Shown: in pieces, positions 2,095 to 23,223 of the stretch
Position numbering within the stretch: position 1 is the stretch's first letter
How the letters are laid out: each line of letters starts with the position of its first letter
NCBI GenBank assembly: GCA_964360095.1
Contig: CAYHVY010000001.1
Location: forward strand, 1 to 37,603
Direction: 5' to 3'
Origin: an uncultured Candidatus Peribacteria bacterium
GTDB taxonomy: Bacteria; Patescibacteriota; Gracilibacteria; UBA1369
DNA length: 37,603 bases
Notes under the pieces: model-generated
Databases searched by the model: none
The model's input: the letters and a program-made list of their open reading frames with translations, nothing else
What the model was told of the DNA's origin: nothing
Position numbers and translations under genes: made by a program

Positions 2095-5000
2095 ATGCAT
2101 AAACGTCACATCCTCAAAGTCGGCATCATTATCCTGGTAACGCTCATTCTGGGCTTTATTGATTTGCCGTCAGAAAAGCAGAAAAAGCTCTTTCCGCCTA
2201 CGCCACAGGCAATCCAGGACAGCAAATATCATTTGGGTCTGGATTTGCAGGGAGGATCTCAGCTTGATTACAAAATTGACCTGCGAAAAGTTCCCGAAAA
2301 GGATCGGAAAAGCATTATTGAAGGAGTCAGTAACGTCATCAACACGCGGGTCAACGGTTTAGGCGTATCTGAACCAAATATTTATCTTTCTTCCGTCGGG
2401 GATGAACAACATCTTATTGTTGAACTCGCCGGCATAAAAGATCTGGAAGAGGCTAAAAAGGTAGTTGGGAAAACAATTCAGCTGGAATTTAAAGAGCAGC
2501 GCGGCACTGAAGATACGGAAGCCCCTAAAAGAGCAAAAAACGCGGCCCAGGCGCTTCTGGACAAAGTAAAAGCCGGTGGCAATTTTGATGTTCTGGGCAA
2601 AGAAGAGTCTCTTGGAAATCCCGGAAAAGTGACTTTTCAGGAGGTTGATTTTCAGTATAAAGATCAGGTGCCATCGGCTCTTGTAAATGACCTTTTTAGC
2701 GCAAAACCCGGAGAAATTCTTAAAAACATCATTGAAACAAGCGGTGAATACAGTATTGATGCAACAGGTCAATTAGCGCCAAGCAAAGGGCACAATGTGG
2801 TAAAATTGCTGGAAAAACGCGACCAAAAACGTGAAATAGATGAAAAACGCGAAGTAACTGTGAGTCATATTTTAGTTGCATACAAGGGCGCGGAACGGGC
2901 GGATTCCGCCGTAACGCGTACTGAAGATGAGGCCAAAAAACGCGCCGCAGAAGTTCTGGAAAAATTGCAAAAGGGTGGAAAATTTGATGAATTGGCAAAA
3001 CAATATTCGGACGACAAAAGCAATAAAGACAGGGGTGGGGCTTTAGAGCAGGCGGTTAAAGGTGAAAGCCAATACGCGAAAGAATTTGAAACCGCCGCTA
3101 TGGCATTAAAAAAAGTTGGAGATCTATCCCCTGTCACAAAAACGTCTTTTGGTTTTCATATAATCAAAGCGGATAAAATCAAAGAAGCCTTAAAGGAGAC
3201 AAGAACCGAACCGCAGGTAAAATATACGAAGATTTTTTACAGTGCGGCATCAGATCCATGGCAGGATACGGAATTAAGCGGAAAACACTTCACACACGCT
3301 GACATTCAATATGATCAGCTTTTCAATCCATATGTATCCATTCAGTTCAATGATGAAGGGGCAAAACTTTTTGAAAAACTCACTGAAAAAAATGTCGGTA
3401 AACCATTGGCCATTTTTGTTGGAGGACAGCTTATTTCTGCACCAAACGTGAATGAAAAAATCAGCGGAGGTAAAGCTCAAATAAGTGGCCGTTTCACATT
3501 GGAAGAAGCCAACAAGCTGGCACGCGACCTCAATACCGGAGCAATACCGGCCCCAATCGTCTTGGCCGGTCAATATACGATTGGAGCGACACTTGGGCAG
3601 GATGCTCTTAATAAAAGTCTTTTCGCGGGCAGTATTGGCTTTCTCCTGGTCGCTCTGTTTATGATTCTCTATTACCGTCTGCCAGGCCTGCTGGCTGTCA
3701 TCGCTCTCACGATCTACGCAATTTTAATGCTGTTCCTGATTAAAACTGCCATGCCGCTCTATTGGTCTCTCCCGATATCCGTGGCTGCATTTGTCTTTTT
3801 AGTGATGAAGATTCTTCGTTCCCGCGAATCAGGGGCCGAAAAAGCAATTGGACTTGTTCTTTCCTGTTTTGTGCTTTTCTTTCTAAGCTTCCTGCTTTCA
3901 ACACCGGTTGTAATGACATTGGCTGGTATCGCCGGCGTTGTTTTATCCATTGGTATGGCCGTGGATGCCAATATTCTTATTTTTGAAAGGATAAAAGAGG
4001 AACTTCGTGATGGACGCACTCTGAGCGCGGCCATTGAAGTTGGCTTTGACAGGGCATGGAATTCCATCCGGGATTCAAATTTTTCTTCTCTCATCACCTG
4101 CGGAATTCTTTTTTATTTTGGAAGTTCCATTATTCAGGGTTTTGCTTTTAACCTTGCGGCGGGTATTTTGGTTTCCATGTTTACAGCCATTACCATTACA
4201 AAAACCTTTATTTCCGCTCTGATAAACACAAAATTGGCCAATAACTTGTGGCTTTTTGGAACACCAAAGAAAAAAGAAAAGAAATTATTGCCGATTATTC
4301 CAAACAGAAAAACCGCCTACATTGTCTCACTGACTGTATTGGCACTGGCTCTCATTAGCATACCCGTTTTTGGGCTTAAATTGGGGCTCGACTTCACCGG
4401 AGGAACGCTGATGGAATTCAAGTTTCAAAAGGCTGTTAATGTTTCGGACATAGAAAAAGCTTTTCAGGAAAGTGTTCAAATATTAAATCAACAAAAAGAT
4501 AAAAAAACTGAGAGTAAAATTGACCCCGGAACTCCGCACATAGTTCCAAGCGAACAGGGATTTATTGTGAAAACACGCCATATCAGCTCGGAGATTCACG
4601 ATCTTTTGATTCCGGAACTTAAAAAGAAACTTGGGGCGTTTGAAGAAACACGCTTTAATACTGTAGGCCCGACTGTTGGAGAAAGTCTGCGTTGGCGCGC
4701 GACATTGGCTGTGGCGGTCGCCAGCATAATGATTGTGCTGTATGTCGCTTTTGCTTTCCGCAAAATTCCGCGTTATGTAAGTAAGTGGCGTTTTGGAACG
4801 GCCGCGATTATCGCTCTGTTGCATGATTTGGGCATCATGCTTGGGGTATACGTATATTTTGGAGTATTTTTTAACGTTGAAATTGACGCGCTTTTCATTA
4901 CAGCAATGCTGACAATTCTTGGATTTTCGGTCCATGACACCATTGTCGTTTTTGATCGTATCCGCGAGAAACTCAAATATCAGAAACATGATGAAAGTTT

Positions 5001-5241
5001 TGCTGAAATTACAAATCAGGCCGTCAATGAAACCATCGCGCGCTCCATCAACACATCTTTTTCGGTATTTCTTACCCTGCTGGCCCTGGCTATTTTTGGA
5101 GGCGAAAGCATTCGTTTCTTTGTTTTATCGCTTCTGGTGGGCATCGTGGCCGGCACGTATTCCTCCGTTTTTGTCGCAAGCCCCGTGCTTGTAGACTGGC
5201 AGGAGCATGCTAAAAAAGCGGTACACGAGAAAAAGAAGTGA
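2095..5241 (+). CDS. secDF: Fused protein-export membrane protein SecD-SecF with parvulin-type PPIase modules inserted in the SecD periplasmic P1 domain
   Basis: SecD motifs are GLDLQGGSQL, VNGLGVSEPNI and TLEEANKLARDLNTGAIPAPI, followed by 6 TM segments. SecF motif GLDFTGGT is followed by 6 more TM segments. Residues about 254-362 read as parvulin (VTVSHILVAYKG...GGKFDELAKQYSDD...GGAL...SFGFHIIKAD). Confidence 0.9.
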   Translation: MHKRHILKVGIIILVTLILGFIDLPSEKQKKLFPPTPQAIQDSKYHLGLDLQGGSQLDYKIDLRKVPEKDRKSIIEGVSNVINTRVNGLGVSEPNIYLSSVGDEQHLIVELAGIKDLEEAKKVVGKTIQLEFKEQRGTEDTEAPKRAKNAAQALLDKVKAGGNFDVLGKEESLGNPGKVTFQEVDFQYKDQVPSALVNDLFSAKPGEILKNIIETSGEYSIDATGQLAPSKGHNVVKLLEKRDQKREIDEKREVTVSHILVAYKGAERADSAVTRTEDEAKKRAAEVLEKLQKGGKFDELAKQYSDDKSNKDRGGALEQAVKGESQYAKEFETAAMALKKVGDLSPVTKTSFGFHIIKADKIKEALKETRTEPQVKYTKIFYSAASDPWQDTELSGKHFTHADIQYDQLFNPYVSIQFNDEGAKLFEKLTEKNVGKPLAIFVGGQLISAPNVNEKISGGKAQISGRFTLEEANKLARDLNTGAIPAPIVLAGQYTIGATLGQDALNKSLFAGSIGFLLVALFMILYYRLPGLLAVIALTIYAILMLFLIKTAMPLYWSLPISVAAFVFLVMKILRSRESGAEKAIGLVLSCFVLFFLSFLLSTPVVMTLAGIAGVVLSIGMAVDANILIFERIKEELRDGRTLSAAIEVGFDRAWNSIRDSNFSSLITCGILFYFGSSIIQGFAFNLAAGILVSMFTAITITKTFISALINTKLANNLWLFGTPKKKEKKLLPIIPNRKTAYIVSLTVLALALISIPVFGLKLGLDFTGGTLMEFKFQKAVNVSDIEKAFQESVQILNQQKDKKTESKIDPGTPHIVPSEQGFIVKTRHISSEIHDLLIPELKKKLGAFEETRFNTVGPTVGESLRWRATLAVAVASIMIVLYVAFAFRKIPRYVSKWRFGTAAIIALLHDLGIMLGVYVYFGVFFNVEIDALFITAMLTILGFSVHDTIVVFDRIREKLKYQKHDESFAEITNQAVNETIARSINTSFSVFLTLLALAIFGGESIRFFVLSLLVGIVAGTYSSVFVASPVLVDWQEHAKKAVHEKKK

Positions 5242-5274: not shown

Positions 5275-6555
5275 TTATTTCAATAAGTCGTCCAACTCGC
5301 ACGACAACAGCGCTGATTTATTAAGCACGATCTGTTCCTTCTGGTTCAAATTGTCGGCCATCATCCGGATAACCTTAGTGATAATGCTGTCCCCGAGCAT
5401 AATCTGATTAGTTTTCTTGAAATACTTCTCGGTCTTCTGATAAAACATGGTCGCGTACTGCTTAAGCTTATCTTCGGGAGTCGGACGGCTACTTACACCA
5501 TTACTTCTAAAATCAAATTTTCCTTCCAGCTTCTTATCTACTTCGATCTGCAAATTACCCTCGCCAAATATAATCCAGTCCTCGAGGTTATAAACAATCC
5601 TGACCGACCCACCGTCCTCTGTCGTATATCGGTAAACGAAAGAAAAAGTATCTGTAAGAAAATCCTGATGTATCCCGATACTCTCTAGCTCTTTTATGGT
5701 GCGGATTTTATATTGATCCAAAAGTCGTAGATAGCTCTCTCGCCAATTCTTGAGCCAATTTCGAATATAATTTTTATTCACGAACAGAGGCTCGAGGTCC
5801 TGCTCAAGATTCTTATCATTAACCTTATTCATCTGAAGCGTGAGCTTATCAAAAAGCGTGCGAGGGTCTTTTGTATTAATACCTTTAGAGACAAGATAAT
5901 CGAAATCAGGCACCACCTTTTTATTCATGTACCAAAGAAGGTCATAAATATCACGTCCTTTTTCCTCATAGACCGCTTCTCCCACGCCACGAGTACCGCG
6001 GAGGAAAATAGCAGCAAGCTTGCTCGCCATAAGCGAGGACATGTTGTAGGTGGTGATCACAAAAGAGAGCTGATCACGGTTTATCGGTCGACGTTCAGTG
6101 ACGATCTTGGGAGCGACAAAATGATTGAGATCAATTTTGACATGTACCTGCTTTGAAGGATTCCCCAAGCTTAACTCTTTGCCGACATGGAACTTCAAAA
6201 GTAAACCTCTGCCGGTGGTTGTTTTTATCGTAAGAAAATCAGCTCCCGCATCATAGGTATTAGTGAAGTGATCTTCGAGCTCTTTTTTTAGCTTCTCCAA
6301 AAACTTCTCTGTTATCGCATGTGAAATTTCAAAATCTAGATCAACTGACATGCGATCAAGTTCGTGAACGATACGAAGCGAGGAACCGCCATACATAATC
6401 CACGAATTGTATTTCGGATGATGATAAATAAAGTTGAGAACGTAAAACTGCAACTCTTCTTTTAAAGCATTACGCCGAGTTTCCGCATCAAGACTGCCGT
6501 AGGCGGCAAGATCATCAAGCTTACGTTTTAGAATTGTAGAAATCTGTTCACTCAT
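5275..6555 (-). CDS. AbiEii/DUF1814-family nucleotidyltransferase toxin (type IV TA) with a C-terminal extension of about 140 aa
   Basis: YGGSSLRIVHELDRMSVDLDFE matches the GG(T/S)xL...R.S.DLDF nucleotidyltransferase signature. Its start overlaps the stop of the upstream AbiEi-like gene by 8 nt. Confidence 0.75.
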   Translation of the reverse strand: MSEQISTILKRKLDDLAAYGSLDAETRRNALKEELQFYVLNFIYHHPKYNSWIMYGGSSLRIVHELDRMSVDLDFEISHAITEKFLEKLKKELEDHFTNTYDAGADFLTIKTTTGRGLLLKFHVGKELSLGNPSKQVHVKIDLNHFVAPKIVTERRPINRDQLSFVITTYNMSSLMASKLAAIFLRGTRGVGEAVYEEKGRDIYDLLWYMNKKVVPDFDYLVSKGINTKDPRTLFDKLTLQMNKVNDKNLEQDLEPLFVNKNYIRNWLKNWRESYLRLLDQYKIRTIKELESIGIHQDFLTDTFSFVYRYTTEDGGSVRIVYNLEDWIIFGEGNLQIEVDKKLEGKFDFRSNGVSSRPTPEDKLKQYATMFYQKTEKYFKKTNQIMLGDSIITKVIRMMADNLNQKEQIVLNKSALLSCELDDLLK

Positions 6556-7165
6556 GAAAGTATTTATTAATCATTGAATAAAATTTATCCCGTTCGCTTT
6601 TTTCCATCTCATCGATATCTATCCTTAATTCCGCAATCATTGCTTTGACTTTTTCTATGTCCAGATCGTTAAGCTGACGCGTTCTCAAATAAAGCAAATC
6701 AAACAATGCTTTAGATGGAGAAGCTATATAGAAATCAAACTTTCCTTCTGCCAGAGAAAAATCCGTAAAAAAATCTTTGCTGATCGACTGATATGAGAAA
6801 TTACCAGCCTTTGTCTGATATTCTTTTGTTACTTTAAGTGTGACCGAGGTGACAGAATGGATCGCTTCAGTGGCGAGGTTGTAATACTGGAGTGCCGCCC
6901 ATGAGCTGATATATGACGGTGTGCGAATGATATTGGCAAGATAGAATGAGTAAGAAACATCGTTCCTGTTTTTATCAAAAAAATCAGTAGAGACATACAA
7001 CCCTCTTTTAAGCTGGATAATATTTTTATACTTCAAAAACCGGCTAATGTAGACATTAAGTGTAGAGTCTTTGAGTCCCAACTGCCTACCAAGCTGAAAT
7101 ACAGTAATTTTACTGAAATGAGACAGGGGTTTAAGTTGTTCTAATAGGTTACTCTTGCTTTTCAT
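6548..7165 (-). CDS. AbiEi-family antitoxin / wHTH transcriptional regulator
   Basis: The N-terminal region FSKITVFQLGRQLGLKDSTLNVYISRFLKYKNIIQLKRGLYV ends in the family RGLY signature. The ATG at 7165 was chosen because the longer track ORF (to 7288) runs across the tRNA gene. Confidence 0.7.
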   Translation of the reverse strand: MKSKSNLLEQLKPLSHFSKITVFQLGRQLGLKDSTLNVYISRFLKYKNIIQLKRGLYVSTDFFDKNRNDVSYSFYLANIIRTPSYISSWAALQYYNLATEAIHSVTSVTLKVTKEYQTKAGNFSYQSISKDFFTDFSLAEGKFDFYIASPSKALFDLLYLRTRQLNDLDIEKVKAMIAELRIDIDEMEKSERDKFYSMINKYFHE

Positions 7166-7258
7166 AATATAACAGAAGTGTATCATATCAGAAACACCTA
7201 TGTCGATAAGCTGAATTTCCCGCCGCCCAAAAAACGGGAAAAAAGTTGGAATATTTTT

Positions 7259-7333
7259 TGGTGCCTCTGGGGGGAATCGAACCCTCATCCCTGGTTCCGA
7301 AGACCAGCGCTTTATCCATTAAGCTACAGAGGC
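7259..7333 (-). tRNA. tRNA-Arg, anticodon UCG, with encoded CCA
   Basis: The reverse complement is GCCTCTGTAGCTTAATGGATAAAGCGCTGGTCTTCGGAACCAGGGATGAGGGTTCGATTCCCCCCAGAGGCACCA. It has a perfect 7-bp acceptor stem, a D arm GCTT/AAGC, an anticodon stem CTGGT/ACCAG with loop CTTCGGA, and a TTCGATT T-loop. Confidence 0.9.
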
Positions 7334-7424
7334 GTTTACTACATGCCCTTTCATTTTATAGTCCAAAACGACTTAAAGCCATAAGAGTTTTTTCTACCGT
7401 AGTCAAAAATACACGTGAGTATTT

Positions 7425-7453
7425 TTGACAATAGTAGAAAATACACATATAAT
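7425..7453 (+). promoter_or_regulatory. Consensus sigma-70 promoter TTGACA-17-TATAAT, probably producing a leaderless or near-leaderless mRNA
   Basis: TTGACA lies at 7425-7430 and TATAAT at 7448-7453, separated by an exact 17-nt spacer. The in-frame ATG at 7460 starts 7 nt after the -10 element. Confidence 0.6.
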
Positions 7454-7459
7454 GATGGC

Positions 7460-8581
7460 ATGGCAATATTTAAACGCTATCTTATTCAACAGGTTGAGAA
7501 AGATCTCCAAAGGAAAATGGTCTTTGTTGGAGGACCGCGACAAGTTGGTAAAACAACTCTGTCAACACATACCAAATTTTCCGACAAAACAGGATATTTA
7601 AACTGGGATATCGCAGAACATAGAGAAAAAATCCTCAGACAGCAATGGCCTGCAACTCAATTGTGGATATTTGATGAAATTCACAAATACCACCAATGGC
7701 GTAATTTGCTAAAAGGGCTATATGATGAGTATAAAGGAAGTCAAAAAATTCTTGTTACAGGCAGCGCAAATTTGGATATATATCGTCATGGAGGCGATTC
7801 CCTTCAGGGACGTTACCATTATTTACGGTTACATCCCTTGTCTGCCGCTGAATTAAAAATACATTCTTCCAAAGAATTGCTTAATTTGTTGGAACTTGGC
7901 GGTTTCCCTGAACCCTTTTTTCAAAGCAAAAAAATTGAGGCAAAACGCTGGTCACGCGAATATCGCACAAGGCTCATTCAGGAAGATTTGAGATCTCTTG
8001 AGCGTATTCATGACATCGGCAAGGTTGAACTTTTGATGTTGAGGTTACCGGAGCTTGTCGGATCACCCCTGTCCATCAATGCAATCCGTGAAGACCTTCA
8101 GGTAAGCCATAAAACAATGGCAACCTGGCTCCTTGTCCTGGAGAAACTGTATGCCATTTTTCGTCTTTCACCATTTGGCGCACCGCGTATTCGTGCCGTC
8201 AAAAAAGAACAAAAACATTATCATTTTGACTGGACATTAATTGAAAATAGCAGCATTCGTTTTGAAAACATGGTGGCATGCCATCTTCTCAAATGGGTAC
8301 ATTATGAACAGGATGTGAAAGGGCGTGATCTGGAATTGCGATATTTTCGAGATACCAATGGAAAAGAAATTGACTTTGTCATTATTGAAAAATTAAAGCC
8401 AATTATGGCCATTGAATGCAAATGGGAAGACGGCCCTGTCTCCAAAGCTCTTTCTTATTTTAAATTGCGTTTTCCGGCATGCGAAATGTGGCAAATCAGC
8501 GCTATTGGAAAACAAGATTATCGTTCAAAAGAAAAAATAAGAGTCTCGCCCGCGATCGGATTTTTAGCAGGACTGGTATAA
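7460..8581 (+). CDS. COG1373-type AAA ATPase with a C-terminal DUF4143 / PD-(D/E)xK-like domain
   Basis: Walker A is GGPRQVGKTT and Walker B is LWIFDEIH. The C-terminal EIDFVI...AIECKW resembles a nuclease D...ExK motif. The track's GTG start at 7415 lies inside the promoter, so the ATG at 7460 is preferred. Confidence 0.7.
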   Translation: MAIFKRYLIQQVEKDLQRKMVFVGGPRQVGKTTLSTHTKFSDKTGYLNWDIAEHREKILRQQWPATQLWIFDEIHKYHQWRNLLKGLYDEYKGSQKILVTGSANLDIYRHGGDSLQGRYHYLRLHPLSAAELKIHSSKELLNLLELGGFPEPFFQSKKIEAKRWSREYRTRLIQEDLRSLERIHDIGKVELLMLRLPELVGSPLSINAIREDLQVSHKTMATWLLVLEKLYAIFRLSPFGAPRIRAVKKEQKHYHFDWTLIENSSIRFENMVACHLLKWVHYEQDVKGRDLELRYFRDTNGKEIDFVIIEKLKPIMAIECKWEDGPVSKALSYFKLRFPACEMWQISAIGKQDYRSKEKIRVSPAIGFLAGLV

Positions 8582-8594
8582 AAACTTTTCGCTA

Positions 8595-8623
8595 TAGAAA
8601 AAATCGTCAAAAAAGGGTATAAT
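8595..8623 (+). promoter_or_regulatory. Promoter-like box TAGAAAAAATCGTCAAAAAAGGGTATAAT upstream of the Fic operon
   Basis: A perfect TATAAT lies at 8618-8623, 26 nt before the ATG at 8650. The box matches the one at 14651-14679 at 25 of 29 positions. Confidence 0.5.
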
Positions 8624-8649: not shown

Positions 8650-8979
8650 ATGCCATTGTCCTCGGATTTTCTGGCCCAATTCAAGTCTGAAGTTCAAAAA
8701 AGCCTGCTTCTGGAAGAAGCGGATAAACAATATTGGCTTGAGAATGCGGAAAAACTGCCGGTGAGTCTTATAAAAGCTTTTTTTGAAGAACTTAAGAAGA
8801 AAAATAATGTAATGAATAGCTATATCCAAGCTGCCGTTGACGCCGATCCATCATTGATTAGTGAGCTTAAAAATCAGCTTCGTTCTATACAAAGCCACAT
8901 CCTGAAATTAAAGGAAAAAAGTGAATCTTCTGGCGAAAAAATTGAAGAAACTCTCGAATCACAATTAAAACAAATATAA
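8650..8979 (+). CDS. Hypothetical small helical/coiled-coil protein, first gene of the Fic operon
   Basis: The 109-aa ORF is charged and helical in character and lies 22 nt upstream of the giant Fic gene. I recognise no motif in it. Confidence 0.5.
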   Translation: MPLSSDFLAQFKSEVQKSLLLEEADKQYWLENAEKLPVSLIKAFFEELKKKNNVMNSYIQAAVDADPSLISELKNQLRSIQSHILKLKEKSESSGEKIEETLESQLKQI

Positions 8980-9001
8980 ATTTAAAAATAAAAACACAAT
9001 C

Positions 9002-12000
9002 ATGGGAGAGTTTGATCTACAGAAAGCCGATATTATAACAGTAGAAAAACAAGCTGGCGAAAAGAAGCACGAATCTTTGCAGCAAAAATTACAGACAAAT
9101 CGTGATCTTTTCACGAGCCATACAGATAAAGTGGAAAATGCTCTTGCTGATGCTCTAAAAAGTTTGACGAGTCAGGAAGCCAAAGACGCTTTAAAAGCTG
9201 ATCAAACAAAGATTCGTGATTTTTTAAAAAGTGTTGCCGATAAAGGGCGTTCAATTTTGAGCGGCAAGGAAGGGGCAGAATCGGTTGATCAAATGATTGA
9301 AGGTCTGCGGAGTGCCATTAAAGATGCCAAAAATAATATAGATTTTTATACAATACTGGATAAATCAAGAGAGCTGGCCAAGGCATCCATACCGGGAATC
9401 AAACTCGTCTACGATCTTCAGGCAAAAGGCGGGTCCGACATTGATAAAAAAATGGATAAAGCCACCGACCAGGCACTGGGTGATCTTCAAGTCGCGCGCA
9501 ACATGTTTGACGCATACAAAGACAAGGCTCTTCCGCAGACCCTGAAAACCATCTACGATGCTGAACTCAAAAAAATTGATGATCAGATAGCAAAAATCCT
9601 GCAAATAAGAGAGGCATATACAGACATTGCGGGAAAAGAAAAAAAACTGGCGGAAATTGAGCAATATTTCAATAATGACAATCTTACGAAAAATTCCAAT
9701 CTTGCAAGAGGGCAATTCGATGATATCGTAAAAAGCAAGAATCTTGCGCCGGAAAGGCTTACTGTCAAGCTAAAATCAATGGGGGAGCAGGCCGATAAAG
9801 CCTTGACTGACCTATGCAAGATCAAAAAAGAGGCCGTTGGCGTTAGTCGCGATGCGCTACTTCCAGATCAACAAAAAAAATATGACGAAATTGTAAAAAA
9901 ACTGGGCGAGCAATTGCAGGAAATGACGGGTTTAAAGGTATATGCCAAAAACCAGGAATTGATTGATCGTGTAAATAAAACTGAAGGCGGCAAATATCTC
10001 CAAATGGAAAGTAAAGTGATCAACGGGCAATTCGTGACTGCGGTTACATTTACAGAAGAATTCCAAAAGTTGCCGGAATTAAAGCAGCAGGAAATCAAAA
10101 TGGCTTTGCAAGGCGTATCTTTTGAAGTCGCCCTTGATGTTGCCAAAAAAACAGGCCTTCCGGAAGATAAATCCTGGCTTGAGGGTCAACAAAAATTGGA
10201 TAAAGGCGATCGCGCAGGCGCAAAAGCGTTGTTTCTTGATTACGTTGCAAAGTTTAAAAATAATCCAGAAAAAAGGCTTCAAGTCGAAAATGCAAAAGGA
10301 ATGTTGCGCGCGATTCTAAGAGAAGATTTAAACCAGGTAAAAGAACATTTTAGCCTGATAAAACAAACGATTGAAGGGCGAGGCGGCGGAGTAACGGGTA
10401 AATTTGACGAACTGCGCAGCGTTCACGACAAACATGGCAGACTTGATGCTGTTAATGGCTTTATAAAGCAAGCGGAAGGATTGATTGCGAGCGGAGAAGC
10501 GCTAACAATTGACGAGATTTACAAAAAACTGCCGAAACTCAAGGACAGTATTGATTTGAAGAGTGACGGAATTTCTATGTTGGATCCCTTTGAACAGCAG
10601 CAACTTTTGAATGAGGCCGATCCCGCAAAACGGCGTCAAAATATTTTAAAACTTGCAAGGGCAGCTAAGGCTGTGGAGTTGACAGCTTTATCTGCAAAAT
10701 ATTATGAAATGTATTTTGCGGATCGCATTGACGGTGCAAAAAAAAGCATCAGCCGCGAGAAGATAAAAGCGGATATTGATCAGGAAGAACTTACAAGCAG
10801 TGAATTTAGAGCGGAAATAAAAGCTCAAATCAAATCATTTCACGACAGCGCAAGACAAAAATTCATGGATGAATATTACAAAGAGCATCCTGGGGCGAAA
10901 AATCCGGCTCTTTCTAAGGACGATCCAGAGGTTAAAGCAATGAAAGCGGCTGAGGAAGCATGGGATAAAAGCTACGACGCGCAAAAGGGAAATGTTTATC
11001 AACAAGCTAAAGATGTGTTGATTGACATTCGATATGACAAGGCTGCAAAAATAGCTATCCATAAAGGAGTTGAAGCTATCACAAGGAGTGGGAGCGGCAT
11101 GACGGCGACAGAAGACGAAAAGATATGGAAAGAAGCCTATGGAAACATAAAAGGAAATGTGGAAAACATAACGGGCGAACACCTGGTTTTTACGCAGGAT
11201 GATTTTTATGAATTGCAAAGCAAAATGGCGGGTTCAATTTTAACAATGGAAATTGCCACACTGGCCGCGATGACAGTGGCAACAGGAGCTTCAGCGGCAA
11301 TCGCAGGTGGAGCATTAACTTCAGCCGGCGGAGGAACTGCCGGATTTTTAATTGAGGGATTGGTAATGCACAGCACAACCGCTTATCTAAATGAAGGCAA
11401 AATTGACCTTTCTTCACCGGAATTTTTACGGGGATTGGCGTCAACTTATGCGACTTTGGGGATTATGAAGGCGACAGGGCTTGGAGGCAACGTTAAACTC
11501 GGGGGCAAAGCGCCATCTGCGGTTGCGGAAAAAACAGCTTCTAGCGCAATTGCTACCGTAGCAAAAGGCGGCGCTGAATTTTTGGGAAAAGTAACCCTGG
11601 ATTCAACTTTAATGACAGGATTAAGTACTCTCGAACGCGGAATAGTAGACAAAAAATGGGCATCCTTTGATGAAATGGCCGGCGAATTCGGCAATAACGC
11701 CATCACATTCCTCGTCATCGGAGGATTGCATAAGGTAGCGGAGGAGAGGGCCCCAACAAAAAAAGGAATAGCTGATACAAAAGCGCCAACGGAACATGCC
11801 AGCAGGGCGTACAGGGAGGGTACGGTAGTGGCTGAACTTTCCATGGCAGATCGAAAAAATATTGATCATAATCCCAAAAATCAGCCGCATGATACAGAAC
11901 TTGAGGCAATTATAAAAGATAAGAATGAAGTCGAATCAGATTATAATAATATGAAAAAAAGACTTAGAAGTTTGCGGGATCAGGCTAATCTCGATCTAAT

Positions 12001-13171
12001 GACGAAGAAAGATAATCATGAATTAACTCAACAAATTGACGCACTTATAGGTAAGATCCAAAAATATAGCGATTCACTTAGATTAGAACGTGCAATTGAA
12101 AGGGAAGCAAGAGAAGATTTTGCTCAAAAACATATAGATGCAGCGGCAAACTTACATCCTGATATTTTTAGGCCAATTCTGTTTGAATTGATGATGAAAA
12201 ATCCTGTTGATTACGAACGGGTTATCTATCTTTCTAAACAAAGTGTCAAACTTGAAGCATCCGGATTGCATCAAGCTGCTAGAGATCTTAAGAATCTAAC
12301 TGGAGATTTTGCCACTGTAGATGGCAGTCCTTTAAAAACTGCGGAACAACGAGCTGCCTTTCTTGAAAAAATGTTGACGCTTTCGCCTCTTGAACATGAA
12401 TGGTATACAACAAGACCTGAAACAACTATTGACACTTCTTACTCTCGTTACGAGGAAAATTTCAATACACTTAAGGAGTTTAGTGCAAAATTTCTGAGCG
12501 AAAAGGTACTTCCTGGTTTAATCGCCAAAAACTTACCAATAAGTGAACTCATCTTGGAAATTCATCGGTGGCAAACACGCGGTTCACAAGCGCAATTGGA
12601 AATTTTAGGATCACCTGCCGAAGGATATGATATTTCTGGAAAAGTCCGCGATGTGCAGGTTTCTGTTGGAAATTACATAGCGCCTATCCCTGGTAAGGTT
12701 CCTGCACTGCTTGGAAAAATGTCAACAAGTATGCAAAACCTGGAAGTTCAGCTTACAAGTTTGAAAAAAACGAACCCAGCAGCTTATGAAAAAGCTGTGG
12801 TTAAAACGGCTTTGTATGCACTGCAAACTTTTGTTGACATTCATCCGATGCGAGATGGAAATGGGCGCACGAGCCGTACTTTATATGAATATTATATTGT
12901 CAAATTTTTAGGACCGACGAGTAAATATCGTAGACTTCCCATGACACAGCGTGATAACGGTGAACCTACTCTGCATGATGAATTACATCAAATGAACGGC
13001 AAACTGCAAAAGACTTTATATGAAAATAAGCCATATGGCAGGTTAGAAGGTCTATACGGGGATCAGCTTTCGAAAAAAATCGATGCAATTAGCCTCGCTG
13101 AACTTAATGCTGATCCGTTATACAAAGAATTCTTTGCAAAGTACAATACATTAATGGCATCATCTCCTTAA
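9002..13171 (+). CDS. Giant (1389 aa) Fic-domain protein: long helical N-terminal region, central Gly/Ala-rich hydrophobic region, C-terminal class II Fic (AMPylase-type) domain
   Basis: The Fic motif HPMRDGNGRTSR starts at nt 12842 (His1281). The inhibitory-helix motif SRYEEN, of form (S/T)xxxE(G/N), starts at nt 12443, which is 133 residues upstream of the His. The ORF is uninterrupted over 4.2 kb. Confidence 0.85.
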   Translation: MGEFDLQKADIITVEKQAGEKKHESLQQKLQTNRDLFTSHTDKVENALADALKSLTSQEAKDALKADQTKIRDFLKSVADKGRSILSGKEGAESVDQMIEGLRSAIKDAKNNIDFYTILDKSRELAKASIPGIKLVYDLQAKGGSDIDKKMDKATDQALGDLQVARNMFDAYKDKALPQTLKTIYDAELKKIDDQIAKILQIREAYTDIAGKEKKLAEIEQYFNNDNLTKNSNLARGQFDDIVKSKNLAPERLTVKLKSMGEQADKALTDLCKIKKEAVGVSRDALLPDQQKKYDEIVKKLGEQLQEMTGLKVYAKNQELIDRVNKTEGGKYLQMESKVINGQFVTAVTFTEEFQKLPELKQQEIKMALQGVSFEVALDVAKKTGLPEDKSWLEGQQKLDKGDRAGAKALFLDYVAKFKNNPEKRLQVENAKGMLRAILREDLNQVKEHFSLIKQTIEGRGGGVTGKFDELRSVHDKHGRLDAVNGFIKQAEGLIASGEALTIDEIYKKLPKLKDSIDLKSDGISMLDPFEQQQLLNEADPAKRRQNILKLARAAKAVELTALSAKYYEMYFADRIDGAKKSISREKIKADIDQEELTSSEFRAEIKAQIKSFHDSARQKFMDEYYKEHPGAKNPALSKDDPEVKAMKAAEEAWDKSYDAQKGNVYQQAKDVLIDIRYDKAAKIAIHKGVEAITRSGSGMTATEDEKIWKEAYGNIKGNVENITGEHLVFTQDDFYELQSKMAGSILTMEIATLAAMTVATGASAAIAGGALTSAGGGTAGFLIEGLVMHSTTAYLNEGKIDLSSPEFLRGLASTYATLGIMKATGLGGNVKLGGKAPSAVAEKTASSAIATVAKGGAEFLGKVTLDSTLMTGLSTLERGIVDKKWASFDEMAGEFGNNAITFLVIGGLHKVAEERAPTKKGIADTKAPTEHASRAYREGTVVAELSMADRKNIDHNPKNQPHDTELEAIIKDKNEVESDYNNMKKRLRSLRDQANLDLMTKKDNHELTQQIDALIGKIQKYSDSLRLERAIEREAREDFAQKHIDAAANLHPDIFRPILFELMMKNPVDYERVIYLSKQSVKLEASGLHQAARDLKNLTGDFATVDGSPLKTAEQRAAFLEKMLTLSPLEHEWYTTRPETTIDTSYSRYEENFNTLKEFSAKFLSEKVLPGLIAKNLPISELILEIHRWQTRGSQAQLEILGSPAEGYDISGKVRDVQVSVGNYIAPIPGKVPALLGKMSTSMQNLEVQLTSLKKTNPAAYEKAVVKTALYALQTFVDIHPMRDGNGRTSRTLYEYYIVKFLGPTSKYRRLPMTQRDNGEPTLHDELHQMNGKLQKTLYENKPYGRLEGLYGDQLSKKIDAISLAELNADPLYKEFFAKYNTLMASSP

Positions 13172-13184
13172 CCATCATACATTT

Positions 13185-14057
13185 ATGCTAGAAGAACATA
13201 TGAAAATTTACGATTCCAATGGCCAAGAAATTGCCGATATTGCCAAGGATAATGATGTAGTCCGACTTGTTATGCTATCGACAACAGGCACACATGAGCG
13301 AGTTCACGAAATTTTTTATGGCGTTGGAGATACTCAAGATCCTCAATTTGAAGCTAGGCTAAGAAATGCTTATGAAAGTAATGGATTCCGTTTTGAAAGT
13401 GCCAAGGATATTGAACAAAAGACTGCTAGAAATGTTTATTTTATCCACGAAAGCAATCTTATTGAAAATATAGTGGAAATTGATGAAAAACTTATTGGAG
13501 AGCGTTATAAAAAACGAACTCAACTGGGTTGTGTCGGCGCTTGGCTTCTCGGAGAAGATAGAGTAAAAGATAAACAACCGCTTTCTGGTAAAGATGTTAT
13601 AAGCATGCAACGTATGCTTACTGATGAACAAGCTATCTATGGACATTTTCTTGAAAATAAATACCGTGGTATCATACGCGGAGAAAACGATTTGGTGAGC
13701 ATTGGAGGACGCACTGTTATTCCGCCACGTCCCGAAGACTATGAAAGCTTTTTTACACGATTTAACGGTGGATTGCAGCAATTAAATCCAAGGAGCATTA
13801 GAGAGATCCTATGTTATCTTGCAAAAACCCATGTTGAATATGAAAGCATGCACCCTTTTGCTGATGGTAATGGCCGTACCGGAAGAAATATCGTCAATTA
13901 TGGCTTAAGCTACTTTAGTCTTCCAGTACTTGTCTTTACTAACCAGGATAAAGGAAAGTATTATGCAGGATTTATTGAAACAACTCAAGACATTTCAGTA
14001 ATGGAAGCATATTTTATAGAAAAATATCGTGAGCAAAATCCAGGATTGTTCCAATAA
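13185..14057 (+). CDS. Stand-alone class II Fic-domain protein, paralogous to the C-terminus of the upstream giant protein
   Basis: The canonical motif HPFADGNGRTGR begins at His223 (nt 13851). The inhibitory motif SNLIEN at residues 90-95 is also exactly 133 residues upstream of the His. The gene lies 13 nt after the giant gene. Confidence 0.85.
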   Translation: MLEEHMKIYDSNGQEIADIAKDNDVVRLVMLSTTGTHERVHEIFYGVGDTQDPQFEARLRNAYESNGFRFESAKDIEQKTARNVYFIHESNLIENIVEIDEKLIGERYKKRTQLGCVGAWLLGEDRVKDKQPLSGKDVISMQRMLTDEQAIYGHFLENKYRGIIRGENDLVSIGGRTVIPPRPEDYESFFTRFNGGLQQLNPRSIREILCYLAKTHVEYESMHPFADGNGRTGRNIVNYGLSYFSLPVLVFTNQDKGKYYAGFIETTQDISVMEAYFIEKYREQNPGLFQ

Positions 14058-14235: not shown

Positions 14236-14523
14236 TCATTTTTTAGACTTAAGATTATCCAAATGTTTTTTTGCCTGACTCCAATTTTTAACGCTTTTTA
14301 TTTTTTCACCAAGGCCGGCTTCTTGAGATGCCTTCAAAATCTCCTTTTCCTCCTGAATGGTAAAACCATTATCAGTAAGCAGTTGAAATGGAATCCCCTG
14401 ATGAATAATAATTTGTTTAAAATAAATTTTAACTGCAGAACTTATATCAATTCCAATTTCATCAAGAACTTTCTTGGTAGATTTCTTGATTATGGGATCG
14501 ATACGGACTTGAATTGTGGACAT
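14236..14523 (-). CDS. RelB/DinJ-family antitoxin-like protein with no cognate toxin gene nearby
   Basis: MSTIQVRIDPIIKKSTKKVLDEIGIDISSAVKIYFKQIIIHQGIPF matches the DinJ ribbon-helix-helix N-terminus. The internal ATG at 14523 is preferred over the track start at 14643. Confidence 0.65.
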   Translation of the reverse strand: MSTIQVRIDPIIKKSTKKVLDEIGIDISSAVKIYFKQIIIHQGIPFQLLTDNGFTIQEEKEILKASQEAGLGEKIKSVKNWSQAKKHLDNLKSKK

Positions 14524-14650
14524 AGCAAATGATAAAAAATAAATACCTAGACACATACATACTACATCAAGCGTAGTGATATTGTAAATACTATGTAGCG
14601 ACAAAATTTGATCAAACTGAGTAATAAAATTTTCCCTTGTCAACGTACGT

Positions 14651-14702: not shown

Positions 14703-15902
14703 ATGCCTGTCCCCGATTCTACCAAAGAGCCTGAAACAATAACGTTAAGGTCACCCGTGCCAAAAAAAGTCGAGGATGCAACTCCGCCTCAACAGGAAGT
14801 CCCGACGGCGGCAGTTAGTGAAGTAAAAACCGCAGTGGCCCTGGCAACGACCAGATTCAGCCATCAAAGGAATATCACCCTGCGTGAACCGGCAGAGGTG
14901 CCAAGAAGTAGCGATGTGGTGGTGATTGGTGATCTGCACGGCAATTACGCAATAGCCCGTGACAGCCTTGCAGCCTTAAGGGTTATTCCGGCAAGCGACC
15001 GTGTGACATGGACCGGAGGTAATACCAGACTGATTTTTCTGGGAGACATTATCGCCGACAAGCATAAAAATGGTTTGGAAATTTTTTTGGCAATAAGGCA
15101 ACTTCAGGATGAGGCCGTAAAATGTGGTGGAAGTGTCACTTTGGTCGCGGGCAATCACGAAAATGCCGCAATTACTTTCTTGGCTGATAGGAAATCGCTA
15201 CATGGCAGAAATTTTTTTACAAAATATGCACACAGTCAACAGTTCATAGGGATTGTCGAATTTATGAGATTCGTGCCGGGCATAACACCGGAGTTACAGA
15301 AATGGTTACAGGGAGCACAATCGGTGAGTGAACTTGCAGGCAGAATATTACAGGCTGGTATTGATCTGGAAACAATTCAGCGAAAGATACTTGGGAACAT
15401 GAGGAAAGACGAAACCGGACTGCAAATATTGGAACAGATGGCTGAAATGCGGCTTGTAGAACAGATAGATGACACGCTTTTTCTGCACACGGAGCTTACG
15501 GATGACATTTTAAAAATGCTTGAAGATAAAGGCAATACTGTTGGGGAAAGCGTTGACAGCATAAATGCCGTATATCAAGAGGGTTTAAGGCATTTACTGC
15601 TTGGCGAAGGTACGATGCCGGAAGACTGGGATAGTATCAACAGGACATTTACAAAATCAGACAACAGATATTTTAAACCTCGGCCGAACCAGCTAGCGTG
15701 GCTCAAAAACAATGGTGTCAATTACGTCGTTCATGGGCACACAAAGTTGGAAGTCGGTCAACATGTTACAAAAACCGGGGATGGAGTCACCATTATTGGT
15801 ATCGACCACCATGCCGGTATAACAGGTCACGGCCGCGCACCCGGGGAAGACCTGTCCATTTTGACAATCTATAAAGAAGACGGCCATTTCAGTGATGTGT
15901 AG
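14703..15902 (+). CDS. PPP-family (calcineurin-like) metallophosphoesterase / Ser-Thr phosphatase-like protein with a Pro-rich N-terminal segment
   Basis: Motifs are VVVIGDLHGN (GDxHG), FLGDIIADKHKNG (a variant of GDxxDRG), VAGNHEN (GNHE) and VVHGHT. Confidence 0.8.
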   Translation: MPVPDSTKEPETITLRSPVPKKVEDATPPQQEVPTAAVSEVKTAVALATTRFSHQRNITLREPAEVPRSSDVVVIGDLHGNYAIARDSLAALRVIPASDRVTWTGGNTRLIFLGDIIADKHKNGLEIFLAIRQLQDEAVKCGGSVTLVAGNHENAAITFLADRKSLHGRNFFTKYAHSQQFIGIVEFMRFVPGITPELQKWLQGAQSVSELAGRILQAGIDLETIQRKILGNMRKDETGLQILEQMAEMRLVEQIDDTLFLHTELTDDILKMLEDKGNTVGESVDSINAVYQEGLRHLLLGEGTMPEDWDSINRTFTKSDNRYFKPRPNQLAWLKNNGVNYVVHGHTKLEVGQHVTKTGDGVTIIGIDHHAGITGHGRAPGEDLSILTIYKEDGHFSDV

Positions 15903-21764: not shown

Positions 21765-21804
21765 TTTGTTGTAGAGCGCAGGCATGCCTGCGCTCTACAA
21801 CAAA
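21765..21804. repeat. Perfect 40-bp palindrome (GTAG...CTAC core) downstream of pyrG; possible terminator or REP-like element
   Basis: TTTGTTGTAGAGCGCAGGCATGCCTGCGCTCTACAACAAA equals its own reverse complement. The ATG at its centre is the track start (21784) of the next ORF. Confidence 0.8.
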
Positions 21805-21825
21805 ATTGCCAATCACCAATATCCC

Positions 21826-23223
21826 ATGCCAAATTTTCGCTATCAGGTAATCAATCCCGAAAATAAAGAACTTTCGGGTATCATCAACGCTCCGGATGAA
21901 AAAAGCGCCAGACTGGAACTAAATCAGCTTGGTTTTTCTATTATCACCATAGAAGATGTAGGGACCGAAACGCTAGAGGCGGGTCTGCAACCCGCCCCCG
22001 CCATTCCGCTTTTTGAATTTGCGGCGCTGGATAAAAATCAAAAACGCGTGGCCGGAACCATTCAGAGCGAAAACCTCTACAGCGCCTACAAAAGGCTTGT
22101 TAAAGAGTATGTTTTTGAAGTTGAGTATCTTTTTGACGCAGGAATAAAAGAAGAACAGAAAATTGCAGAAAAACAAAAAGGCGTTTTTGAAATGCAAAAC
22201 CGGCTGGATATGGAGGAATTCGCTGAAAAAAAGAAAAAAATGGGTAGTGAACTGGACATTCAGGCGTTTGAACGGCAACAGACTGTGCTTGCAGAGCAGG
22301 TTGGCTTTGTTCTGAAAAAAGTAAAGGAGATACTGGATCTTTACGAAACCGAAATAAAGCCGGAAACAAAAGAGAAAATACGCCGTTATGTGGATAAAAT
22401 TTTACGCATCAAAAACAGCACAAATCTTGATTATATCCGTAACACATGCGAAGAACTACTCACATTTATTCAAAAAGAAGAACTTTTTTTACATGAAGAT
22501 CTTCGGCGAAAAGAGCACACGAAACTGCTTCTAGAAGCCAAGGGTATGATGATGCAACTTCACCGCAGTAAATTGACGCCGCTGCCGAATATCAAAGAAT
22601 TGTTCATGAATTGGCGTCAGGAACACATACTGGACAATGAACAACCTAATACTTTTGAGCGATTTTTAAATTTTTTGATTGGAATATTGATCGGTTTTAC
22701 GCAGGAAAGCGCGGAAATATTGGAAATTCACCGTCGCGTCCGTGTGTTAAATCAACAGCTATGGCAATATATCATTCTTTATTTTCAGGATGTAAGTCCG
22801 GAATTTAAAAATGAAGCAAAATCAGGTTTTAAAAATCTTCTGCATGAACGAAAAAAACTTGTCCACCAGCTAAAAACCGTCCGTCAACAAAATAAACGCT
22901 CATCAGAATCCGCAACCAAATCGGACAGATGGGAAAATCTCAAACAGGAACTCCATGATGTCAGCGGATGGCTGCTTGCTTTTTACCTATGCTACTATTT
23001 TGCATCACTTTATTTGAACAATAAAAAAATGGGGATCGGCCCTTTGTCGGCCAATTTTGACATCCTCCGGTCATCTTTTCTGAAATATTTTTTTGCCATT
23101 CTTTTCCTTTTTCACGTTTCCCTTGCGGTTAAAATCAATTTTTTCAGACGCAGCGAAATAGCGACGTTTATCGTGACTCCCCTTTTTTTGCTCGGAAGCA
23201 TTCTTATTTTGCTCAATTTCTGA
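21826..23223 (+). CDS. Hypothetical membrane protein with two N-terminal PilC/GspF-N-terminus-like modules and 3 C-terminal TM segments
   Basis: FRYQVINPENKELSGIINAPDEKSARLELNQLGFSIITIE and FEFAALDKNQKRVAGTIQSENLYSAYKRLVKEYVFEVEYL resemble the extreme N-terminus of T2SS-F/PilC proteins. The ATG at 21826 is preferred because the track start lies inside the palindrome. Confidence 0.5.
   Translation: MPNFRYQVINPENKELSGIINAPDEKSARLELNQLGFSIITIEDVGTETLEAGLQPAPAIPLFEFAALDKNQKRVAGTIQSENLYSAYKRLVKEYVFEVEYLFDAGIKEEQKIAEKQKGVFEMQNRLDMEEFAEKKKKMGSELDIQAFERQQTVLAEQVGFVLKKVKEILDLYETEIKPETKEKIRRYVDKILRIKNSTNLDYIRNTCEELLTFIQKEELFLHEDLRRKEHTKLLLEAKGMMMQLHRSKLTPLPNIKELFMNWRQEHILDNEQPNTFERFLNFLIGILIGFTQESAEILEIHRRVRVLNQQLWQYIILYFQDVSPEFKNEAKSGFKNLLHERKKLVHQLKTVRQQNKRSSESATKSDRWENLKQELHDVSGWLLAFYLCYYFASLYLNNKKMGIGPLSANFDILRSSFLKYFFAILFLFHVSLAVKINFFRRSEIATFIVTPLFLLGSILILLNF
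21973..22001. repeat. Degenerate copy of the GAGLKPAPT-type hairpin element, in frame in a linker
   Basis: CTAGAGGCGGGTCTGCAACCCGCCCCCGC matches the minus-strand form of the 37170-37198 element at 21 of 29 positions. It encodes LEAGLQPAPA. Confidence 0.6.

Follow-up and report, generated by a model that had tools for sequence, protein, structure and literature searches.

A three-gene Fic cassette in a Candidatus Peribacteria bacterium: a divergent Fic module with a downstream companion domain, possibly a toxin-antidote type conflict module

We have analysed a 37,603-nucleotide (nt) stretch of DNA, hereafter the window, from an uncultured Candidatus Peribacteria bacterium (assembly GCA_964360095.1, contig CAYHVY010000001.1). 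Three genes on the + strand form a cassette encoding a small helical protein, a giant protein that ends in a Fic module and a partner that carries a second Fic domain. The cassette looks like a toxin with its antidote, not two copies of one toxin, and we suggest, tentatively and at somewhat below an even chance, that it is a self-contained, relocating conflict module built on a toxin-antidote type pair. Sequence comparisons indicate that what is new here is a companion domain, so far undescribed, that is encoded downstream of the divergent Fic enzyme and in the giant branch is fused to the second Fic. The three genes are:

8650..8979, + strand: small helical protein of 109 amino acids (aa) with a conserved YWLxN...LP core; accompanies giant forms only.
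9002..13171, + strand: giant protein of 1389 aa, with a hypervariable N-terminal region, a hydrophobic Ala/Gly-rich segment and a C-terminal Fic module of the divergent type named HPM-Fic below (alignments, Pfam).
13185..14057, + strand: partner of 290 aa, the companion domain fused to a class II Fic domain (alignments, AlphaFold2 (AF2) model).

The name HPM-Fic is coined here for the divergent Fic subfamily of the giant. With giant residues 945-1389 as query, HMMER searched 1.84 billion representatives exhaustively and returned only 42 relatives (E <= 1e-3), 16 of them at E <= 1e-30; the conserved core lies at query positions 134-440. Family members span 363 to 5662 aa. The module in the window comprises the following elements:

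12233..13168, + strand: giant aa 1078-1389, core of the divergent HPM-Fic module (exhaustive search, AF2, Foldseek).
12308..12418, + strand: giant aa 1103-1139, signature FS.VDG..L.T.E.R.A..E.L..LS.LE..WY..RP (family alignments).
12638..12679, + strand: giant aa 1213-1226, flap (beta-hairpin) GKVRDVQVSVGNYI, which aligns to the FICD flap, with strands at model residues 181-186.
12842..12877, + strand: giant aa 1281-1292, catalytic motif HPMRDGNGRTSR (motif search).

The partner has its own catalytic motif:

13851..13886, + strand: partner aa 223-234, catalytic motif HPFADGNGRTGR, the canonical HxFx(D/E)GNGRxxR.

Pfam Fic (PF02661) matches both proteins above its gathering score (cut-off 24 bits), at residues 1182-1298 of the giant (E 6e-11, 43.5 bits) and 133-239 of the partner (E 3e-10, 41.4 bits). 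A first-pass annotation, made from the letters of this DNA alone, had read the C-terminal motif of the giant at nt 12842 and a canonical one in the 290-aa open reading frame (ORF) at nt 13851; we find them there, starting at aa 1281 and aa 223, respectively. In HPMRDGNGRTSR a Met replaces the Phe of HxFx(D/E)GNGRxxR, and all other residues of the motif are present and conserved in the family. HPMxDGNGR is seen in 20 of the 21 family sequences in which the motif was located (one has Phe, one Glu for Asp), and the His, the Asn and both Arg residues are conserved across the family.

The AF2 model of the giant module (mf0026c811cd3) has a predicted local distance difference test score (pLDDT) of 90.1 and a predicted template modelling score (pTM) of 0.87; Foldseek matches it to FICD, BT_2513, NmFic and EfFIC at TM-scores of 0.3-0.4. 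For the partner (pLDDT 83.8, pTM 0.80) the best structural matches are FICD, BT_2513, CdFic and SoFic at a TM-score of about 0.5. A Fic fold with a beta-hairpin flap is present in both models, with Fic structures as the top Foldseek matches, and that of the giant module appears to be the more elaborated.

Three signatures distinguish the subfamily: HPMxDGNGRTxR, H.WQ..GS..Q and the stretch at aa 1103-1139 listed above. The last is the most conserved element outside the catalytic motif and precedes the catalytic His by some 145-175 residues. Within it D1107 is conserved in 22 of 22 sequences and E1122 in 17 of 22, G1108, W1134 and Y1135 are invariant in alignment A3 (sequences from the homologue search only), and T1113, R1117 and A1119 are near-invariant. 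The element could be structural, or have a substrate-binding or non-canonical regulatory role. Two other acidic columns are well conserved in the 22-member alignment, E1263 and E1296 (19/22 each).

The constant associate of HPM-Fic shows itself at the lower end of the size range. Behind the genes for short and mid-size members (363-554 aa) lies an ORF of 81-100 aa and no second Fic. These stand-alone ORFs are homologous to the N-terminal ~75 residues of the partner only (hhalign probability 95.9%, E 5.9e-9, 71 columns), with hmmsearch E-values from 1.1e-13, for the 81-aa ORF at locus L144, to 7e-6. At L144 the companion ORF overlaps the HPM-Fic gene by 14 nt. The idea that the short ORFs are artefacts of a genetic code in which UGA is read as Gly was discarded; all end at TAA, and TGA is a stop codon in the window. 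The corresponding part of the window protein is:

13185..13412, + strand: partner aa 1-76, companion domain of three beta strands, two helices and one strand (AF2).

No Pfam family was found for this domain. At one locus, L068 (584-1354), the partner orthologue has become a pseudo-enzyme, with SDLMAG in place of the inhibitory motif (Ala instead of Glu), a deletion of the flap region and ESDGRVKR as what is left of the catalytic motif. It retains the companion domain in spite of these losses, on a single short metagenome contig, and since the Glu and the catalytic motif are lost and the domain is kept, partner catalysis looks dispensable there. Because stand-alone homologues follow the short and mid-size forms, and because the L068 protein keeps it, the small alpha/beta companion domain stands out as the constant partner of HPM-Fic. 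By sequence the class II Fic domain thus appears to be an addition in the giant branch and not the core of the HPM-Fic pairing.

An unusual family member occurs at L143 (68-17056). In this protein, P0033 (5662 aa), the HPM-Fic module lies near the N-terminus (aa 149-490) instead of at the C-terminus, the rest consists of thousands of residues with faint HEAT, PHP and Metallophos matches, and no companion gene was found downstream on the same strand.

How are the two Fic enzymes of the cassette controlled? Fic enzymes are restrained in three known ways, by a Glu-bearing inhibitory motif within the chain, placed N-terminally (class II) or C-terminally (class III) of the catalytic motif, or by this motif on a separate small protein that is often an antitoxin (class I). 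The first-pass annotation held that both proteins carry an N-terminal inhibitory motif of the form (S/T)xxxE(G/N), each exactly 133 residues before the catalytic His, and that both are therefore class II enzymes. The strings and the spacing are as described, with SRYEEN at aa 1148 of the giant and SNLIEN at aa 90 of the partner; the class assignment holds for the partner, whereas for the giant neither the meaning of the string nor the class survives comparison with relatives. The two motifs are:

12443..12460, + strand: giant aa 1148-1153, SRYEEN, at a helix start (model residues 108-113), within a loop that is rich in indels and not conserved.
13452..13469, + strand: partner aa 90-95, SNLIEN (orthologue alignment).

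Of 11 partner orthologues, 10 keep SNLIE unchanged at -133, with a sixth position that varies (N/E/G/D/R), and the register equals that of T230-H363 in FICD, as read off a printed alignment. The motif occupies the end of helix 73-90 and the following loop in the AF2 model (pLDDT about 73), and the match to the PADLOC SoFic model begins at residue 89. A class II, Glu-bearing Fic is a credible description of the 290-aa protein on the basis of alignment and model.

In the giant the situation differs. (S/T)xxxE(G/N) at -133 is absent from all five orthologous giants, so that SRYEEN occurs in the window protein only. The S1148 column of the 22-member family alignment holds Ser or Thr in two sequences and a gap in 11, the E1152 column Glu in five and a gap in seven. 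In shuffled versions of the giant the pattern would occur 1.3 times on average. That the two spacings agree is accidental, since the totals are made up differently: motif to flap and flap to His measure 65 + 68 residues in the giant, 75 + 58 in the partner and 77 + 56 in FICD. We judge the giant's SRYEEN, from these alignments, to be a chance match and not an inhibitory motif; a conserved N-terminal motif of the class II type was not found in the module.

Other sources of an inhibitory Glu were considered and rejected. Class III would call for (S/T)xxxE(G/N) on a C-terminal helix some 79 residues beyond the His; the motif is missing after the His in every giant, and the column at +80 is not conserved. 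Class I would make the small protein encoded upstream the donor, as VbhA is; the motif is absent from every member of that small-protein group, and their S-hhh-(E/D) stretch holds no conserved Glu. Nor is a Glu motif conserved in the downstream companion domain, as judged from sequences read by eye; the stand-alone protein at L144 has TPEIEN, and the column is Tyr, Ala or His elsewhere.

The two modules had also been taken for specific paralogues. Alignment gave 25-27% identity over about 90-106 residues: blastp 27% over 106 aa (E 2e-6), and hhalign of the two orthologue families 25% over 87 columns from flap to catalytic loop. Each family matches human FICD about as well as it matches the other, and shared superfamily membership appears to be all the relatedness that these comparisons support; the modules are not close paralogues.

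The cassette is rare and is inherited as a unit. The order small ORF, giant Fic, Fic partner of ~290-320 aa is found at eight loci (L001, L002, L005, L006, L007, L060, L063 and L066), and L061 has giant and partner without the small ORF. Giants with a partner range from 967 to 2729 aa, all ending in the same Fic module, and 11-27 nt separate the giant stop codon from the partner gene in eight loci. The description of the window genes as a three-gene Fic cassette is borne out by this co-oriented, tightly spaced unit being kept at other loci. Its named close relatives are confined to Candidatus Peregrinibacteria/Peribacteria metagenome-assembled genomes, which belong to the Candidate Phyla Radiation (CPR). 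GTDB holds two species representatives, and metagenomes of the Joint Genome Institute (JGI) add about eight loci. A full-text literature search found no paper on Fic domains in Peregrinibacteria, and phage, plasmid and viral-structure searches with the HPM-Fic module returned generic Fic matches only.

The 4.2-kb ORF of the giant is not an assembly artefact, since an independent ENA assembly has a 1389-aa ORF identical at 1388 of 1389 positions and orthologues of the same architecture exist at about ten loci; a frameshift or chimera, the check proposed with the first-pass annotation, is thereby ruled out. Recomputed coordinates agree with the three-ORF layout on the + strand reported there, 8650-8979, 9002-13171 and 13185-14057, with gaps of 22 nt between small protein and giant and 13 nt between giant and partner. 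No convincing + strand terminator was found between the three genes. A possible promoter precedes them, and the number of promoter-like sites in the cassette region is not above the shuffled expectation:

8595..8623, + strand: sigma-70-like promoter match TAGAAA-17-TATAAT, the best consensus match, 27 nt 5' of the small ORF.

A Logan contig, L005, is syntenic with the window and allows rates of divergence to be compared. The housekeeping protein SecDF is 92% identical and a flanking AAA_14 ATPase 85%; the giant Fic module is 78-87%, the partner 69% and the small protein 55% identical. Partner orthologues form a small family (33-69% identity). Elsewhere the locations change. In L001 (2520-12323) and L006 (266-12917), which come from two related genomes, the cassette lies between the E1beta and E2 genes of pyruvate dehydrogenase (PDH), and since it splits a normally contiguous 2-oxoacid dehydrogenase operon, insertion as a mobile unit is argued for. 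In L007 it adjoins a DUF87/TrwB ATPase, in L002 it is near a type IV secretion system (T4SS) pilin gene, and in the window and L005 it sits within a defence-gene cluster. No neighbouring gene is common to the cassette loci besides the cassette members. Extreme divergence, patchiness and relocation are features of accessory conflict systems rather than of housekeeping regulation.

Variability along the giant is distributed in the opposite sense to that of a polymorphic toxin. The C-terminal ~445 residues of the giants share 63-75% identity and the C-terminal module overall 63-87%, with an N-terminus that is 25% identical or unalignable. The first-pass annotation had proposed a polymorphic-toxin locus with two paralogous, auto-inhibited class II Fic units, one of them a spare cassette, and had suggested looking in relatives for the same N-terminal region joined to different C-terminal modules. 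A large protein with a C-terminal enzymatic domain, a second gene close behind it and the literal (S/T)xxxE(G/N) 133 residues before the His in both proteins are what such a locus would offer. The layout is nevertheless the reverse of that proposal, a conserved C-terminal enzyme behind a hypervariable N-terminus with no known trafficking domain found, and relatives display the opposite of the sought pattern. The low identity of the modules and the unconserved motif of the giant add to this. Nor does the downstream gene behave as a spare: it belongs to a different Fic lineage, it is a co-inherited orthologue at every giant locus, and its N-terminal domain stands alone, with no second Fic, beside the short forms. 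We regard the polymorphic-toxin explanation as very improbable. Of the three roles offered for the free-standing gene, that of an immunity-like partner or regulator fits best and that of a spare cassette does not.

The long N-terminal part of the giant is divided as follows:

9002..11191, + strand: giant aa 1-730, hypervariable mosaic region without a recognisable domain and without internal repeats.
11204..11716, + strand: giant aa ~735-905, Ala/Gly/Thr-rich hydrophobic region (hydropathy; aligns across the window, L001, L005 and L006).
11834..12232, + strand: giant aa 945-1077, helical pre-module region, conserved among the closest relatives only.

Residues 1-730 are 25% identical to those of the congener L005, with ~250 residues of indels, and no similarity to the N-terminal regions of L002 or L007 was detectable. 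The L006 giant is a mosaic, with an L001-like N-terminus joined to an L002-like insert. Across the giants these regions are only 30-40% identical, unalignable or mosaic, and a search for internal repeats in the giants found none. Divergence of this order, set against the 92% of SecDF, marks the N-terminal 730 residues as a candidate interaction surface. The ~1150 N-terminal residues are rich in Lys, Ala, Leu, Glu and Asp, with no hydrophobic signal-like stretch at the N-terminus, in broad agreement with the first-pass annotation. Pfam scans of the window giant and six relatives detected nothing outside Fic, and no delivery, adhesion or secretion domain in any giant scanned; for the window giant the non-Fic region has no family in NCBIfam, PADLOC or PHROGs, and sequence searches of the PDB match the Fic core alone.

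The Ala/Gly-rich segment is present in most family giants. Kyte-Doolittle hydropathy peaks there at 1.56 in the window protein and reaches 2.08 among orthologues, which makes the segment a borderline candidate for a transmembrane or membrane-inserting segment. The pre-module region is 63-75% identical in P0022-P0024 and lies outside the matched stretch in more distant members.

Homologues of the small protein are encoded 5' of the giant in L001, L002, L005, L006, L007, L060 and L063 (25-55% identity), and L066 has a similar-looking ORF in that position; such genes, of ~92-125 aa, occur at nearly all giant loci. The protein is absent from the short and mid-size HPM-Fic loci as well as from L061. 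The 109-aa sequence has no family match in Pfam, NCBIfam, PADLOC or PHROG.

How might the cassette work? HPM-Fic would be the effector; its complete catalytic motif, HPMxDGNGRTxR, and its flap predict an enzyme that modifies a protein target with AMP or a related nucleotide moiety. The downstream companion domain of ~75 residues is predicted to bind and restrain this enzyme. The giant branch would add to these core components a very long, hypervariable mosaic region with a hydrophobic segment, N-terminal to the Fic module. By analogy with FICD, EfFIC and SoFic, the companion-fused, Glu-bearing Fic would most likely be a deAMPylase, an eraser that provides a second protective layer, and the small helical protein encoded upstream would probably assist the long extension as a chaperone or adaptor. 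The conserved Glu is proposed to mark enzymes capable of both AMPylation and deAMPylation, and FICD and EfFIC require it for the latter reaction (PMC6408439); SoFic deAMPylates EF-Tu constitutively (bioRxiv 10.64898/2026.07.09.737422).

With respect to the target, we give roughly equal weight to delivery into another cell, a host bacterium or a competitor, and to an intracellular role of the abortive-infection or toxin-antitoxin kind. Delivery is favoured by an N-terminus that is mosaic and hypervariable, a hydrophobic segment adjoining the catalytic module, the chaperone-like and immunity-like genes, and the precedent of FicTA modules, which fusion to a delivery domain has repeatedly turned into delivered effectors (PMC5675462).

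Several points weigh against a toxin-antidote type conflict module. We infer toxicity, neutralisation, deAMPylation, the chaperone role and the biological target alike, and 'unregulated', applied to HPM-Fic, means without the canonical inhibitory motif and nothing more. A non-canonical acid (D1107, E1122, E1263 or E1296) may possibly take the inhibitory position in the giant. The companion domain has neither a known fold family nor a conserved Glu. The known Fic antitoxins FicA, VbhA and Phd are encoded upstream of their toxins and not downstream. The sequences of module and partner diverge together (r = 0.97), a correlation largely explained by shared phylogeny. In its delivered form the proposal lacks a signal peptide, linked secretion genes and a recognisable delivery domain, none of which was found. 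In its defence form, no NTPase or known sensor domain was found, the PADLOC matches are to generic Fic models only, and the defence-island context amounts to one independent locus, the window and the syntenic L005 together.

Could the two Fic enzymes instead cooperate? Both would then act in the same direction: the partner could activate the giant by AMPylating it, or the two could assemble into a hetero-oligomer whose state switches activity, as it does in FICD and SoFic. The companion might also be a specificity or targeting adaptor, or even the substrate. On this view the cassette would serve regulation, at the membrane for instance, and would not be a toxin-antidote pair. Complete catalytic motifs in both proteins at nearly all loci are as expected of such cooperation, a tight operon suits a stoichiometric complex equally well, and regulation by oligomerisation and auto-AMPylation is common among Fic enzymes (PMC6408439, PMC6826200, bioRxiv 10.64898/2026.07.09.737422). 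Patchy distribution, relocation and divergence that is extreme relative to flanking genes fit such a device poorly. The short forms, moreover, need only a companion of ~80 aa, and the L068 partner is by sequence catalytically dead. We consider cooperation unlikely.

The immediate surroundings of the cassette in the window bear on another explanation. An AbiEii (5275-6555)/AbiEi (6548-7288) pair on the - strand, of the type IV toxin-antitoxin or abortive-infection type, lies upstream; the AbiEi ORF overlaps tRNA-Arg(TCG) (7259-7333, - strand) at its 5' end, and because of this overlap and of a PADLOC match that starts at residue 57 the true start is probably an internal Met. Directly 5' of the cassette is a PDC-S01-type AAA_14/DUF4143 ATPase (7415-8581, + strand). 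Two such ATPases flank the cassette in L005 (2994-4115 and 11502-12641), and other loci are without them. On the 3' side is a RelB/DinJ-like antitoxin homologue (14236-14643, - strand) with an unusual hydrophobic N-terminal extension, which looks orphan because there is no room for a RelE-type partner before the Fic partner gene.

Together with a HEPN/MNT pair, these AbiEi/AbiEii, ATPase and RelB genes, among which the cassette is placed in the window and L005, would accord with a purely intracellular, anti-phage abortive-infection system. The hypervariable N-terminus would be a sensor of phage components and HPM-Fic an effector that shuts down, for instance, translation or DNA topology in the host; the partner would silence or reset this effector, and the whole would be a special case of the core mechanism that we prefer. 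Defence systems commonly join a variable sensor to a conserved effector. The PADLOC defence model for SoFic hits the partner at E 1.3e-15, export signals were not found, and the short forms, with their overlapping ORFs, resemble two-gene toxin-antitoxin pairs. Beyond the single defence locus, however, the cassette is found between PDH genes or elsewhere. The explanation leaves the Ala/Gly-rich segment and the chaperone-like gene unaccounted for, and neither phage-encoded relatives nor counter-defence homologues were found. As an exclusive account it is doubtful.

The delivered form of the toxin-antidote proposal can be sharpened into a writer/eraser system within one fold. With the giant, an AMPylating effector able to cross membranes, a CPR cell (Peregrinibacteria) would attack its host or competitors; the partner would bind the toxin by its ~75-aa companion domain and remove AMP by its Glu-bearing Fic domain, the small protein would chaperone the delivery region, and the short forms would be ancestral, with the giant arising by fusion. 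Taken as a whole this detailed picture is improbable.

Comparison with characterized systems helps to place the cassette. As proposed here, it would act most like a Fic toxin-antitoxin or effector-immunity pair. The partner resembles the class II enzymes FICD/HYPE, SoFic, BT_2513 and CdFic in its HPFxDGNGRxxR motif and -133 (S)xxxE register, and these are its best sequence and structure matches. It has neither the TPR of FICD nor the wHTH of SoFic, carrying instead the novel ~75-aa N-terminal companion domain; it also differs from class II enzymes in that the G/N position of the motif is not conserved and in always being found downstream of a second, divergent Fic gene. The PADLOC SoFic model is matched only at positions 63-245 of 361, short of full length, and against the SoFic equivalog NCBIfam NF046030 the partner scores 30.2 bits where the cut-off is 550.

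Class I FicTA modules (FicT/FicA, VbhT/VbhA) and the Bartonella Beps share with the cassette a tight bicistron of a Fic toxin and a small separate partner, the latter proposed here to exert restraint. The companion described here, though, is encoded downstream and is an alpha/beta domain, not a short upstream helix that donates (S/T)xxxE(G/N). The likeness to Beps has a further limit, as no BID or other T4SS signal was detected in the cassette.

IbpA of Histophilus somni and PfhB2 of Pasteurella combine an N-terminal two-partner-secretion domain, haemagglutinin repeats and tandem Fic domains in one polypeptide. The window giant is like them in being very large with a Fic enzyme at the C-terminal end. 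It differs in having no signal, no repeats, no two-partner-secretion domain or other N-terminal Pfam domain, and in that the partner Fic is a separate protein.

CdiA, Rhs and LXG loci likewise encode a large protein with a C-terminal enzyme and have a protective-looking gene directly downstream, and LXG toxins also have a small helical protein encoded upstream. In the cassette, by contrast, it is the toxin-like module that is conserved and the N-terminus that is hypervariable, no known trafficking domain is present and the downstream gene is a conserved enzyme fusion. Downstream spare cassettes related to the main toxin, as in polymorphic-toxin loci, were not found; the identity is 25-27% and the partner is a conserved orthologue.

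Immunity proteins and antitoxins that act by enzymatic reversal include Tri1 against Tre1, DarG against DarT and the SAH antitoxins of toxSAS. The logic proposed for the cassette, of binding the toxin and reversing its product, would by analogy be the same, with the difference that writer and eraser would here share the Fic fold.

What would follow if these proposals are correct? The cassette suggests a fourth arrangement for the restraint of Fic enzymes, without a conserved canonical motif and with a downstream alpha/beta partner domain that is sometimes fused to a Fic domain. It would be the first bacterial conflict system in which a Fic writer is set against a Fic eraser, and on that reading the evolution of the giant would parallel the route from FicTA to Beps in Bartonella. 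For CPR bacteria, of which most are uncultured and which probably depend on other cells, the cassette would be one of very few mechanistic handles on how they attack or defend. It makes a Fic writer/eraser conflict pair directly testable; should this not be confirmed, an ordinary, unusually large Fic protein with a Fic neighbour remains.

The window is otherwise an ordinary segment of bacterial chromosome, with housekeeping genes for a SecDF-PPIase fusion, PriA, TrpRS, PyrG, Lgt, GreA, RpoD, DnaG, TruB and a Mur ligase. In the SecDF protein (2095-5241, + strand, 1048 aa) a PPIC-type peptidyl-prolyl isomerase is inserted in the periplasmic/P1 region, and the same fusion is found in L005. Beyond the RelB homologue is a 399-aa calcineurin-like metallophosphoesterase (14703-15902, + strand) with ~70 N-terminal residues that are Pro/Glu-rich. 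A link between this enzyme and the cassette, prompted by the Metallophos match of P0033, was rejected on account of weak similarity (E 0.002) and the absence of the gene from every other locus. Two ORFs among the housekeeping genes, 21784-23223 (+ strand, 479 aa) and 24531-25733 (- strand, 400 aa), have no Pfam or NCBIfam family; the 479-aa product displays a sub-threshold GspF-like match at its N-terminus.

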